A stretch of 16,022 nt of DNA, from positions 1 to 16,022 of the IMG/VR virus record IMGVR_UViG_2526164666_000036. One strand, given 5' to 3'. Below, piece after piece: positions 676 to 12,589 of this stretch (position 1 is the first letter of the stretch; the number at the start of each line of letters is the position of its first letter). The notes below the pieces were generated by a model, which saw nothing but the letters and a program-made list of their open reading frames with translations, was not told the origin of the DNA and searched no databases. Made by a program: the position numbers and the translations under genes. Origin of the DNA: a virus (lineage: Duplodnaviria; Heunggongvirae; Uroviricota; Caudoviricetes).

Positions 676-1058
676 CGAATTTCTCCCGTGTACAGGAACA
701 GAGTTAAAAAGCCGGAACCGGAATCAAATTACAGGATGGCCATCTGCCAGTGGCTGGTCGTAAAAAAAGGCCACGCCATGCGCAGCCGGAAATAAAGGGA
801 TAACGATGATAGTTTGAGAAAAACAGAAACGACACTTTTGTGGCAAAGCATGGTGCCGGGTGCCTCCCGGTGAGTTCAGCCCGGTGCCACTAAACCCTCG
901 TCATTCTCGTTTTGATAATCAGAGATTATACCGTCACCAGTCGCCCCTCCGCTCAGGGGGATTCACCATGCAGTTTTTTTCTAACAAATTCTCATCCGGG
1001 CAGACAACATTCAACTGACTTAATTGTGAGGTATGTAACATTCCTGTTGAACGGATAC

Positions 1059-3466: not shown

Positions 3467-3745
3467 TTACCTCCAGATCCGTTGCTGGAATGTGCGGGAC
3501 GGACGCGGTGGCCGTTCGGAGTAAGGGAGCCTGACGGAGATTATCCAGTGACGGTAGTCGAGGCTAAGGGCTTTTTTAACCTCGCATCCGCGCCTGCGGT
3601 AACACTGAATGAGCCATTCGGCCTGTTCTTCAGTGCATGGGGGATGCTGGTACCAGTCAGATTTGAATGCGTGAAAACACCGTCCGCGCCTGCTGGCAAA
3701 GACGGCAGAATCATCAGAATTGTATAATTTGGTATCGTGCGCCAT
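3467..3745 (-). CDS. Hypothetical Cys/His-rich small protein, 92 aa (position of rem in Qin)
   Basis: First in-frame ATG at 3745 (MAHDTKLY...); the track's TTG start at 3826 lies inside a terminator U-tract. Stop TAA sits inside the SD-start spacer of the DUF968 gene. SD is weak. Confidence 0.45.
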   Translation of the reverse strand: MAHDTKLYNSDDSAVFASRRGRCFHAFKSDWYQHPPCTEEQAEWLIQCYRRRGCEVKKALSLDYRHWIISVRLPYSERPPRPSRTFQQRIWR

Positions 3746-9704: not shown

Positions 9705-10130
9705 TTAGTGCATCACCACAGCATTCCCTGCCGGGCCGCCGCGATTCATCTGGTCATACAAAACAACCGCTGACGCAACAAAATCATCGACATCCTTCAC
9801 CAGCCGATCCCTCCGTTCGACGATCTCACGGTAATATTCAGAACTGTGGCTGCGCATACGGGCCACCAGCAAAGGCGGCATCGCCTTTTCGATCGCCGGT
9901 AACAGAGCCTGCATTTTTTCAACAGCATCAGGGGTGTCTTTCTCTACCCAGCGGAAAATTTTCTGGGTATTGCGAGCCAGGGCTTCCGGATGGCTGTCGT
10001 CATACAGTTCTGGGAACGTCATACCCAACTCAAAATAAGCCTGGGTTATTCCAGCTGCTGGAACTTTTTCGCCATCAGGACGCGCCCAGGCATTCATCGC
10101 CATGCGGATGTGTTCATGCTTGATTTTCAT
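9705..10130 (-). CDS. YdaT-like protein (CII-position regulator), 141 aa
   Basis: Begins MKIKHEHI; AGGAG SD; directly downstream of, and overlapping by 17 nt, the Cro-like gene, as in Rac ydaS-ydaT. Confidence 0.65.
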   Translation of the reverse strand: MKIKHEHIRMAMNAWARPDGEKVPAAGITQAYFELGMTFPELYDDSHPEALARNTQKIFRWVEKDTPDAVEKMQALLPAIEKAMPPLLVARMRSHSSEYYREIVERRDRLVKDVDDFVASAVVLYDQMNRGGPAGNAVVMH

Positions 10131-10395
10131 GAATCAAGCTCCTAGAAAGTGGTTGTGTTAACGTTTTGGTATCTTCCAGCTCGGGCCAAATATTCATCCA
10201 ATCAAAAGGCCTTAGTTGCTGACGTGTAACTTCACCATTACTGGCTCGCTCAATAAGGACACATAACGATGCCCCTAACACTTGACCTTTACTCAATGCC
10301 TTTCTTAGATAACCGATGCTGGTACCACACTCGCATGCAAACATACGCTGTTCATCTGACGAAAGAGAATTGAGAAATATTCTTAATTCTTCCAT
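10114..10395 (-). CDS. Cro-like HTH regulator (YdaS/DicC family), 93 aa
   Basis: HTH-like FACECGTSIGYLRKALS and IERASNGEV...LRP pattern; AAGGAG SD 5 nt upstream of ATG; divergent from the repressor gene. Confidence 0.7.
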   Translation of the reverse strand: MEELRIFLNSLSSDEQRMFACECGTSIGYLRKALSKGQVLGASLCVLIERASNGEVTRQQLRPFDWMNIWPELEDTKTLTQPLSRSLIHENQA

Positions 10396-10495
10396 AGCTA
10401 CTCCTTAGTAAACACAGCAAAGAATACCCACAGGTAAACAAAAGTCAATACCCACAGGTTGTTTACCTTGCGGTAATCGCATCTATTATTTACCT
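10396..10495. promoter_or_regulatory. Divergent immunity promoter/operator region
   Basis: Direct repeats AATACCCACAGGT at 10423-10435 and 10447-10459, plus TTTACCTATGGA at the repressor ATG. Minus strand carries TTGACT-16-TATTCT for the Cro-like gene. On the plus strand TATTAT (10484-10489) sits 6 nt before the repressor ATG with no SD, implying a leaderless mRNA. Confidence 0.55.
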
Positions 10496-10915
10496 ATGGA
10501 CAAATATGAATTTAGACGACAGCAACTCATCAAAATTCGTGATGAGAAATGCGATGGTAAAGCGGTTAACGTGGCCAGAAAGATCGGGCGCGAGCCTTCT
10601 TATGTATCAAGAATGTTGTACCCAGAGGGGAAAAAGGGAAAAAAACGGATCGCTGATGATATGGTGGAGATTATCGAAGAGTCCTTTGGGTTACCCCGGG
10701 GATGGATGGATGGTATCGTTTCATCATCAACGAACACAGCCTCCAGTTATGAAACAAGGGTTCTAACGCCACGACAACGTATTTTTTTAGATCTCTTAGA
10801 CGAACTGCCAGAAAGTGAAGCGGATAAATTATTAAAAACTCTTGAAGAGAAAAAACAGTATTACAATATGATCTACGAAGAAATCCGTAAAAAGAAAGCA
10901 CAAAACGCATCATAG
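10496..10915 (+). CDS. cI-type prophage repressor (DicA/RacR-like), 139 aa
   Basis: Divergent from the Cro-like gene; N-terminal HTH region; C-terminal LPESEADKLLKTLEEKK resembles the DicA C-terminus as I recall it. Confidence 0.75.
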   Translation: MDKYEFRRQQLIKIRDEKCDGKAVNVARKIGREPSYVSRMLYPEGKKGKKRIADDMVEIIEESFGLPRGWMDGIVSSSTNTASSYETRVLTPRQRIFLDLLDELPESEADKLLKTLEEKKQYYNMIYEEIRKKKAQNAS

Positions 10916-10955
10916 CTCACCAAACAACTAGTCACCAGTTAAGACACCGCAAAAA

Positions 10956-10997
10956 TTTACCCATGGGTATTTACTTTTTAAATACCTATGGGTATCC
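10956..10997. promoter_or_regulatory. Two palindromic operator-like sites at the early operon promoter
   Basis: TTTACCCATGGGTATTT (10956-10972, perfect palindrome TACCCATGGGTA) and AATACCTATGGGTATCC (10981-10997), same half-site as the divergent region; overlap candidate -35/-10 hexamers. Confidence 0.5.
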
Positions 10998-11180
10998 TTC
11001 TTTTCATACCAACCCACCCCGCCCCACAGAATGCAGGGCAATACTTCGAGTTACCAGGCAGTGGTCAGGGGTTAAGTAGCCAGCCCGAGGCGTAAGAACA
11101 TGACGGCAGGGTTCAACTTTAATAACTATGCAGCAGGTTTTTGTTCCGCTACCCCGGCGTTAAGGGGAAATGAGGTCAGC

Positions 11181-12531: not shown

Positions 12532-12589
12532 TTCTGGTGACATTTGGCGGTATCAGTTTTACTCCGTGACTGCTCTGCCGCCCTTTTTT
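12532..12589 (+). ncRNA. dicF: DicF small regulatory RNA
   Basis: TTCTGGTGACATTTGGCGGTATCAGTTTTACTCCGTGACTGCTCTGCCGCCCTTTTTT matches DicF as I recall it, apart from one or two changes near the 5' end; ends in its own GC-hairpin plus U-tract terminator; lies just upstream of dicB. Confidence 0.85.

Follow-up and report, generated by a model that had tools for sequence, protein, structure and literature searches.

In the 16,022-nt stretch of viral DNA analyzed here (hereafter, the window), positions 10396–10495 and 10958–10998 are, on the basis of sequence geometry and comparison, very probably the control regions (OR-type and OL-type) of a bistable, lambda-style switch for immunity in a lambdoid prophage at the Qin site, a reading that includes a leaderless repressor mRNA and probably a non-SOS route of induction. 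The switch is a widely distributed further example of a well-understood class, and leaderless repressor mRNAs are already known.

Prophage context of the divergent genes

The window was 100% identical to the prophage adjoining rspB in Escherichia coli O103 RM8385 and in many other strains, and the chromosomal site next to rspB is the site of the Qin prophage in K-12. An intergenic region of 100 bp (10396–10495) parts two divergent genes of 93 aa (minus strand) and 139 aa (plus strand). The coding features around it are as follows:

9705–10130, minus strand: cII-like gene of the YdaT family, 3′ of the cro-like gene (PF06254; phrog_163, CII-like activator)
10114–10395, minus strand: cro-like gene encoding 93 aa with a YdaS-type HTH, at the head of the early-right operon (PF15943 YdaS; phrog_35)
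10401–10406, minus strand: Shine-Dalgarno sequence AAGGAG, 5 nt from the ATG of the cro-like gene, read from the sequence (anti-SD duplex, −8.6 kcal/mol)
10496–10915, plus strand: repressor gene, 139 aa (phrog_5736), with the putative transcription start at its ATG (10496)

Leftward from the intergenic region, the genes for the cro-like YdaS-type protein and the CII-like YdaT protein are accompanied by O-like and DnaC-like (P-like) replication genes, Q, and a gene for a NanS-type esterase, and rightward the repressor gene is accompanied by a DUF1391 (ydfA-like) gene, DicF (12532–12583), dicB, an exonuclease gene, xis, and int. By gene order, the 139-aa gene corresponds in position to cI and the 93-aa gene to cro, and this lambdoid prophage context bears out the proposal of an earlier note on this DNA that the region is an immunity switch. 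The cro-like protein shares 73% identity with gp51, the protein in the cro position of phage mEp043.

When species-representative genomes were scanned for the N-terminal domain of the repressor, 46 loci were obtained from Enterobacterales, Aeromonas, Neisseria, Burkholderiales, Xanthomonas, and others. Homologues of the cro-like protein accompany this domain in distant relatives, and the HTH N-terminal domain always travels with TACC-N4-GGTA palindromes and the same Cro-type partner. The layout described below is kept in about 35–40 gamma- and betaproteobacterial prophage loci that encode the same repressor N-terminal domain.

Putative palindromic operators between the divergent genes

The two TACCCA-containing repeats that had been noticed in the divergent region are present, with TACCCA at 10425 and 10449, each within a copy of the direct repeat AATACCCACAGGT (10423–10435 and 10447–10459; 13 nt, 100% identity). 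The unit that recurs is palindromic, 12 bp long, and evenly symmetric (4+4+4), with the sequence TACC-N4-GGTA. Perfect copies of this palindrome occur four times in the 16-kb window (at 10425, 10464, 10958, and 10983), against 0.06 expected, and none of 200 shuffles reached four perfect copies; chance is thus ruled out for the palindrome. All four perfect copies lie inside two clusters, one between the divergent genes and the other 3′ of the repressor gene, and a fifth site, at 10449, has one mismatch to the palindrome. In total, three putative operators are located between the divergent genes (10425, 10449, and 10464), and two are located in the gap between the repressor stop at 10915 and the next gene at 11100 (10958 and 10983). 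TACCCA alone was modestly enriched, with 14 copies in the window against 5.6 expected, 5 of the 14 falling in the two operator clusters. The TACCCA half-sites proposed earlier were partly apt: TACC(C/T)(A/G) describes one half of the operator well, but the palindrome, the third OR site, and the OL/PL cluster had been missed. A literature search for six operator sequences returned unrelated primer matches only. The sites and promoters of the intergenic region are as follows:

10421–10448, minus strand: PR-like promoter, −35 TTGACT (10448–10443), 16-nt spacer, −10 TATTCT (10426–10421); scan, 9 of 12 matches
10425–10436, unstranded: operator O1, TACCCACAGGTA, perfect palindrome in the PR-like spacer, overlapping the −10 by 2 nt (shared TA)
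10449–10460, unstranded: operator O2, TACCCACAGGTT, with an imperfect right half, flanked by the −35 hexamers of both promoters
10462–10489, plus strand: PRM-like promoter, −35 TTTACC (10462–10467), 16-nt spacer, −10 TATTAT (10484–10489); scan, 9 of 12 matches
10464–10475, unstranded: operator O3, TACCTTGCGGTA, perfect palindrome lacking TACCCA, lying across the −35 and spacer of the PRM-like promoter
10491–10502, unstranded: degenerate fourth site, TACCTATGGACA, two mismatches, spanning the start codon; repeat-family search

The centers of O1 and O2 are 24 bp apart and those of O2 and O3 are 15 bp apart, and the center of O2 lies at −41.5 relative to the repressor ATG, the putative start. An operator role for the degenerate site at 10491–10502 was rejected, and the match is probably due to chance: the 6 nt before the ATG vary among relatives.

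Aligned at the repressor ATG, operators were found in about 40 related loci at about −72 (the position of O1), −47, and −32. The four central bases fitted YRYR in 29 of 35 canonical loci at O1 and in 31 of 35 at O2, but in only 7 of 35 at O3, so that O3 departed from this pattern in 28. The degenerate outer right half of O2 is kept across the family, and in O3 the outer 4+4 core fits without a mismatch. These conserved site-specific deviations, in the outer right half of O2 and in the center of O3, suggest that an affinity hierarchy is under selection, as in lambda. The deviant center is our sole basis for assuming that the repressor has a low affinity for O3.

The identity of the two AATACCCACAGGT copies over all 13 nt might suggest that the functional units are these direct repeats, bound head to tail, rather than palindromes bound by symmetric dimers. 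However, at O3, OL1, and OL2, only TACC-N4-GGTA recurs, without the direct-repeat sequence; among relatives, the N4 is free within YRYR, whereas the symmetric outer bases are invariant; and the AATA and TCAA parts of the repeat belong to the conserved −10 and −35 elements of PR. With these observations set against it, head-to-tail binding of direct repeats is extremely improbable, and in what follows the palindromes are treated as the putative operators.

Promoter placement relative to the operators

A sigma-70 consensus scan covering 10050–11150 yielded exactly two promoter-like sites, one on each strand, as listed above. Shuffled sequences give the same number of promoters in about 1.1 kb, so that the count itself carries little weight and it is the placement that matters. 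The two hits fall exactly where the switch model needs them, which provides independent support for the operator model. The repeats had also been said to overlap the −35/−10 spacer of the promoter of the cro-like gene, and this holds for the first repeat (core, 10425–10436), but the second abuts the −35 from upstream. In relatives, the elements of the PR-like promoter, namely TTGA beside O2 and a TAnnnT that shares its TA with O1, are kept in 33–35 of 35 canonical loci: TCAA (the PR −35) flanks O2 in 34–35, and the base completing the TAnnnT of the PR −10 is found in 33. On the repressor side, the PRM-like −35, TTTACC, has only four of six matches and lies inside an operator. This hexamer is part of the O3 consensus, and its match to the −35 hexamer could therefore be incidental.

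The repressor mRNA is likely to be leaderless

The hexamer TATTAT that had been reported 6 nt before the repressor ATG lies at 10484–10489 and is followed by the 6 nt TTACCT and then by the ATG at 10496–10498. This ATG was also correctly described as having no Shine-Dalgarno sequence: the best duplex between the 20 nt upstream and the 16S anti-SD had an energy of +1.9 kcal/mol, compared with the −8.6 kcal/mol of the cro-like gene, and no GGAG/AGGA-type motif was found at −16 to −4 of the repressor ATG. Across the family, the median anti-SD energy was −2.6 kcal/mol for the repressor gene and −4.3 kcal/mol for the divergent gene (Wilcoxon p = 2e−5). Position 10496 is the first start codon of the repressor ORF, and conservation among homologues starts exactly at MDKYE, where the N-termini converge despite the extra residues given to some of them by gene callers.

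The start codon was ATG in 48 of 48 related loci. In 38 of these 48, a −10-like hexamer ends 6 or 7 nt before the ATG, against about 2–3% at other offsets, although here, as in the other comparisons, the related loci share ancestry and their counts overstate the number of independent observations. The hexamers themselves differ among relatives (TATTAT, TAGAAT, TAAAAT, TAGACT, TATGAT, TTGAAT, and others), and the 6–7 nt between the −10 and the ATG also vary; in other words, the position is conserved but the sequence is not. Because the −10 in the window ends 7 nt before the A of the ATG and this geometry is kept in most of the related loci, the repressor mRNA is likely to be leaderless, with transcription starting at the A of ATG 10496. 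The comparison, including the weak SD pairing, strongly supports the PRM-type leaderless transcript that the earlier note had proposed. Leaderless prophage repressor mRNAs have been documented for lambda cI, DicA, RacR, YmfK, and PaaR2 and are common among E. coli prophages (PMC4681348, PMC8630535): the dicA, racR, and ymfK mRNAs were identified as leaderless by dRNA-seq (PMC4681348), and that of paaR2 in CP-933P, which has a ydaS/ydaT context, by 5′-RACE and N-terminal sequencing (PMC8630535).

If the repressor were instead made only from a leadered transcript, such as one from a cII-activated PRE-type promoter in the cro/cII region, initiation would be independent of an SD sequence and TATTAT would not be a working −10. 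The window does have a YdaT/CII-like gene, cI of lambda is expressed from PRE as well as from PRM, and the weak −35 within O3 would be in keeping with such an arrangement. However, the −10-like hexamer keeps its position in the related loci despite its variable sequence, a pattern difficult to account for if transcription does not begin at the ATG, and related prophage repressors have proved leaderless in experiments (PMC4681348, PMC8630535). A leadered transcript as the only source of the repressor is therefore unlikely. The leaderless start favored here may nevertheless not be the sole route of initiation: in a cII-dependent establishment transcript, if one exists, the same ATG would be internal and without an SD sequence. 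In betaproteobacterial and Xanthomonas relatives, both divergent genes look leaderless, and for that reason the leaderless start is perhaps ancestral in this switch family.

A second, putative operator pair downstream of the repressor gene

The second cluster of palindromes lies in the gap 3′ of the repressor gene, with the following features:

10958–10969, unstranded: operator OL1, TACCCATGGGTA, perfect palindrome, abutting the PL-like −35
10970–10998, plus strand: PL-like promoter, −35 TTTACT (10970–10975), 17-nt spacer, −10 TATCCT (10993–10998), read from the sequence
10983–10994, unstranded: operator OL2, TACCTATGGGTA, perfect palindrome in the PL-like spacer, sharing TA with the −10
10958–11004, plus strand: candidate intrinsic terminator, a 16-bp RNA hairpin formed by OL1 and OL2 with the T-rich tail TCCTTCTTTT; terminator scan

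The PL-like promoter, which has 8 of 12 consensus matches and thus falls under the scan threshold, reads into the DUF1391 gene, DicF, dicB, the exonuclease gene, xis, and int. Its design can be written as TACCCATGGGTA-TTTACT-N17-TATCCT, so that one operator adjoins the −35 and the other runs into the −10. An operator pair with a spacing of 25–26 bp was found 3′ of the repressor gene in 33 loci; in these relatives, TTGAc follows OL1 directly, TAnnnT shares its TA with OL2, and a T occupies position 6 of the PL −10 in 26 of 26. The record of mEp043 annotates a putative PL at the equivalent place.

The hairpin formed by OL1 and OL2 has a fold energy of −23.4 kcal/mol (z = −4.96), and its long stem and T-rich tail, together with the lack of any other terminator between 10915 and 10958, would fit a pair at 10958–10994 that serves only as the intrinsic terminator of the repressor gene and is neither operator nor promoter. 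Such an exclusive terminator role is highly improbable, since each arm of the hairpin is a perfect copy of the OR palindrome, the 25–26-bp spacing and the TTGAc and TAnnnT elements are kept in the 33 loci, and the layout persists when the pair is set apart from the repressor gene by other genes and a distinct terminator, for example, in mEp043. The operator and terminator roles are compatible and not mutually exclusive. The OL operators might be dual-purpose elements, acting as DNA as repressor sites over the PL-like promoter and, in the leaderless repressor RNA, as a 16-bp hairpin with a T-rich tail. If this is true, the OL hairpin would stop repressor transcription ahead of the toxic DicF/dicB operon.

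A chimeric repressor without an S24 domain

The 139-aa repressor consists of an XRE-type HTH N-terminal domain (aa 1–74), a disordered linker, and a helical DicA-like C-terminal domain (aa ~89–138). In an AF2 model (pLDDT 82.9), the N-terminal helices span residues 3–18, 23–30, 34–41, and 54–63, the disordered linker residues 76–87, and a two-helix tail residues 92–102 and 106–138. Foldseek matched the model to phage repressors and XRE-type C proteins with a probability of about 1.0, although the E-values were weak beyond the top match, and the best fold matches in the PDB were the Salmonella phage Rep repressor (5d50) and XRE-type controller proteins. Rep is dismantled by an antirepressor. 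None of the Pfam HTH models reached an E-value of 0.01 on the repressor, and a sequence search of solved structures gave nothing significant, the best match being the Z-alpha domain of ADAR1 (E = 0.08). The NCBI pipeline labels the repressor a “hypothetical protein.”

Residues 1–86 share 65% identity with the repressor of phage mEp043, whereas the tail shares 33% identity over 46 aa with the C-terminus of DicA (pairwise E = 2e−7) and also resembles the CI of phage Tritos. The N-terminal domain was found by database search in hundreds of proteins, most of which have an S24/LexA-type C-terminal domain, but the S24 (LexA-like) domain PF00717 is absent from the 139-aa repressor. An S24 domain is typical of lambdoid repressors but not universal, as DicA, the Gifsy repressors, and PaaR2 also lack one. 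Judged from its sequence, the repressor is a domain chimera, with an mEp043-like N-terminal part, a DicA-like C-terminal part, and no S24 domain. Without this self-cleavage domain and with a DicA-like C-terminus, its induction route is probably independent of SOS. A DNA comparison with Tritos placed the junctions around the repressor gene: the two have in common the cII-like gene, the tail of the repressor, and all sequence from 11012 on, and 10143–10798 and 10915–11011 are specific to the immunity type of the window.

No antirepressor was found in the window. A tblastn search with Rem, the antirepressor that counters DicA, gave no match to the window below E = 0.5, and the ORF at the syntenic position (3467–3745, minus strand) has no similarity to Rem.

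Comparison with known switches

Lambda PRM reads TAGATT-TAACGT-ATG, with OR2 centered at −42 from the PRM start; lambda operators are 17 bp long, OR2 and OR3 are 23 bp apart, and there are three OL sites. The window resembles lambda in having three operators in the gap between a repressor gene and a divergent cro gene, where the first falls within the spacer and −10 of PR, the second separates the −35 hexamers, and the third covers PRM; in the center of O2, −41.5 against −42, and the 24 bp between the first two sites; in a second operator cluster over PL, 3′ of the repressor gene; and in the leaderless geometry of a −10, 6 nt, and ATG, here TATTAT-TTACCT-ATG. In contrast, the window has a 12-bp operator core, a distance of 15 bp from O2 to O3, and two OL sites. 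The repressor is unrelated in sequence to that of lambda and lacks the S24 autocleavage domain, Cro is of the YdaS type, and CII is of the YdaT type.

Phage mEp043 (NC_019706; gp50, cI; gp51, cro) has the same palindrome and the same 3+2 operator layout, and TAGAAT-TAAATC-ATG precedes its repressor gene, which again gives a −10, 6 nt, and ATG. The window switch can be placed in the same specificity group as mEp043. The two differ in that the mEp043 repressor is longer, at 228 aa, with an S24 (LexA-like) C-terminal domain in its close homologues, and in that an N-type antitermination early-left operon takes the place of DicF/dicB. No experimental study of the mEp043 operators or immunity region was found in the literature searched.

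The record of mEp043 notes a similarity of its repressor to 933W CI. Like the window, 933W has three OR and two OL sites (PMC3317979), but its operators are 15 bp long with rotational symmetry about a central base pair (PMC3317979). Because the 933W sites have this odd symmetry and another half-site, as against the even 4+4+4 symmetry found here, a 933W-type switch was ruled out; the similarity between the mEp043 and 933W repressors does not extend to the DNA-binding specificity seen here.

In its biological role, the window switch is equivalent to the DicA system of Qin, with which it shares the chromosomal site by rspB, a downstream operon of DUF1391/ydfA, DicF, and dicB, a short repressor without S24 and with a homologous helical C-terminal domain, and, around dicBp, two operators. 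The DicA N-terminal domain is unrelated, however; the DicA operators are of the TGTTAGN...CTAACA type; and the window has no Rem homologue. Membership in the DicA subfamily (NCBIfam NF007257) was rejected, as the repressor scored 24.5 bits against a cut-off of 101 and only residues 86–136 matched. DicA is SOS-independent; mitomycin C fails to induce it, and its antagonist is the antirepressor Rem (bioRxiv 10.1101/2023.04.14.536235).

The PaaR2/YdaS/YdaT region of the cryptic prophage CP-933P in E. coli O157:H7 also has a repressor gene divergent from ydaS-ydaT, with an intergenic region of about 100 bp (PMC8630535). There, PR and PRM overlap operators to which PaaR2 as well as YdaS binds, and a PL-type promoter carries further operators (PMC8630535). 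PaaR2 is nevertheless a different protein, with the N-terminus MQKKE, and its operators are 18-bp palindromes with the half-site GTTTAGTAA (PMC8630535); the toxin-antitoxin genes paaA2-parE2 that come after it are absent from the window.

Proposed mechanism

In the proposed switch, repressor dimers would occupy O1 and O2 at one end and OL1 and OL2 at the other, and this occupancy would shut off the operon of cro, cII, the replication genes, and Q as well as the operon of DicF, dicB, exonuclease, xis, and int. From O2 (−41.5), the repressor would be in a position to activate its own transcription, as does lambda CI at −42, and O3 would serve negative autoregulation and is likely to be the first target of the Cro-like protein. 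RNA polymerase would start 7 nt after TATTAT, so that the mRNA would begin with AUG 10496 and would be translated without a leader or an SD sequence. Induction would probably occur not by RecA-stimulated autocleavage but through an antirepressor or repressor instability, as reported for DicA, because the repressor has a DicA-like C-terminal domain in place of the S24 domain of most homologues.

With an mEp043-type DNA-binding domain joined to a DicA-type tail, the switch might be blind to SOS and under the control of some antirepressor. A dual-purpose OL element, an SOS-blind switch under an antirepressor, and a leaderless start as an ancestral design feature, taken together, make up a tentative proposal that is rather doubtful as a whole.

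Significance of the switch

The operators and the true start together give a rule for annotation; for want of an SD sequence, gene callers often place the start of homologues upstream of MDKYE. Counted by matches covering at least 80% of 10100–11100, this immunity type is carried by 822 or more of the 5,426 complete E. coli genomes, many Shiga-toxin-producing serogroups (O103, O145) among them, and the defined operators predict which prophages would be co-immune. They also identify the promoter that would keep the DicF/dicB division-inhibitor operon silent. Furthermore, the fixed layout across gamma- and betaproteobacteria, together with the deviations at O2 and O3, offers a natural data set on how an operator hierarchy may be maintained.

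Comparison of the immunity region with phage Tritos and K-12 Qin

Alignment with phage Tritos (L003) showed sharp mosaic joints at window positions 10143–10798 and 10915–11011, one of which splits the repressor gene at the boundary of the two domains that it encodes. Tritos shares with the window the cII-like gene (84%), the C-terminal region of the repressor (75%), and all of the sequence beginning at 11012 (94%). The replaced parts are the cro-like gene, the operators between it and the repressor gene (OR), the N-terminal domain of the repressor, and OL/PL. In E. coli K-12 Qin, the dicC-dicA-ydfA region (L051, 2340–2960) has the same architecture as the window, but its operators are of the TGTTAG...CTAACA type, unlike those of the window. 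The promoter 5' of Qin ydfA (TTGACC-17-TAATCT) has one operator 5' of its -35 element and another within its spacer.

RNA genes and the OL hairpin

Three Rfam matches above the gathering score were found in the window.

RNA genes in the window (coordinates, strand, feature, Rfam score)
812–1000, minus strand, sRNA STnc100, 134 bits
4063–4238, minus strand, sok antitoxin RNA of a hok/sok locus, 115 bits
12532–12583, plus strand, DicF sRNA, 77 bits

OL1 can pair with OL2, the second operator 3' of the repressor gene, in a 16-bp RNA hairpin (10958–11004, plus strand; -23.4 kcal/mol, z = -4.96), followed on its 3' side by TCCTTCTTTT. Because the stretch from the repressor stop codon to the PL-like promoter holds no other terminator, this hairpin may end the repressor transcript ahead of the DicF/dicB operon.

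Start codons of the repressor and cro-like genes

No Shine-Dalgarno (SD) sequence precedes the Qin dicA ATG. Among the relatives from beta-proteobacteria and Xanthomonas, an SD is missing before the cro-like gene as well as before the repressor gene (L022, L027, L028, L031, L034, L035, L037, L038, L040, L042, L043, L045–L048, and L050), and its ATG, about 82–87 nt 5' of the repressor ATG, lies 6–7 nt past the PR -10 element, which shares TA with operator O1. Both divergent genes therefore look leaderless in these relatives. In the window, the cro-like ATG follows a leader of about 19 nt that contains AAGGAG.

Gene callers often annotate repressor homologues 2–9 residues longer, starting 5' of the conserved MDKYE (for example, MVNDVKIAPMDKYE in P0040 and MLAMDKYE in P0063), and some of these starts fall within operator O3; the extended N-termini are probably misannotated starts that result from the lack of an SD. 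Many E. coli alleles of the repressor gene (window 10496–10915) are frameshifted (proteins P0007–P0019 and P0022), their predicted proteins beginning MNLDD... at an out-of-frame ATG (10506) and regaining the repressor frame later, which suggests that repressor decay is frequent in resident prophages.

The repressor start codon is itself spanned by an operator-like sequence, TACCTATGGACA (10491–10502), with two mismatches, both in the right half. This resemblance is probably due to chance, because relatives do not conserve the 6 nt on the 5' side of the ATG. If real, the site would imply autoregulation at the transcription start.
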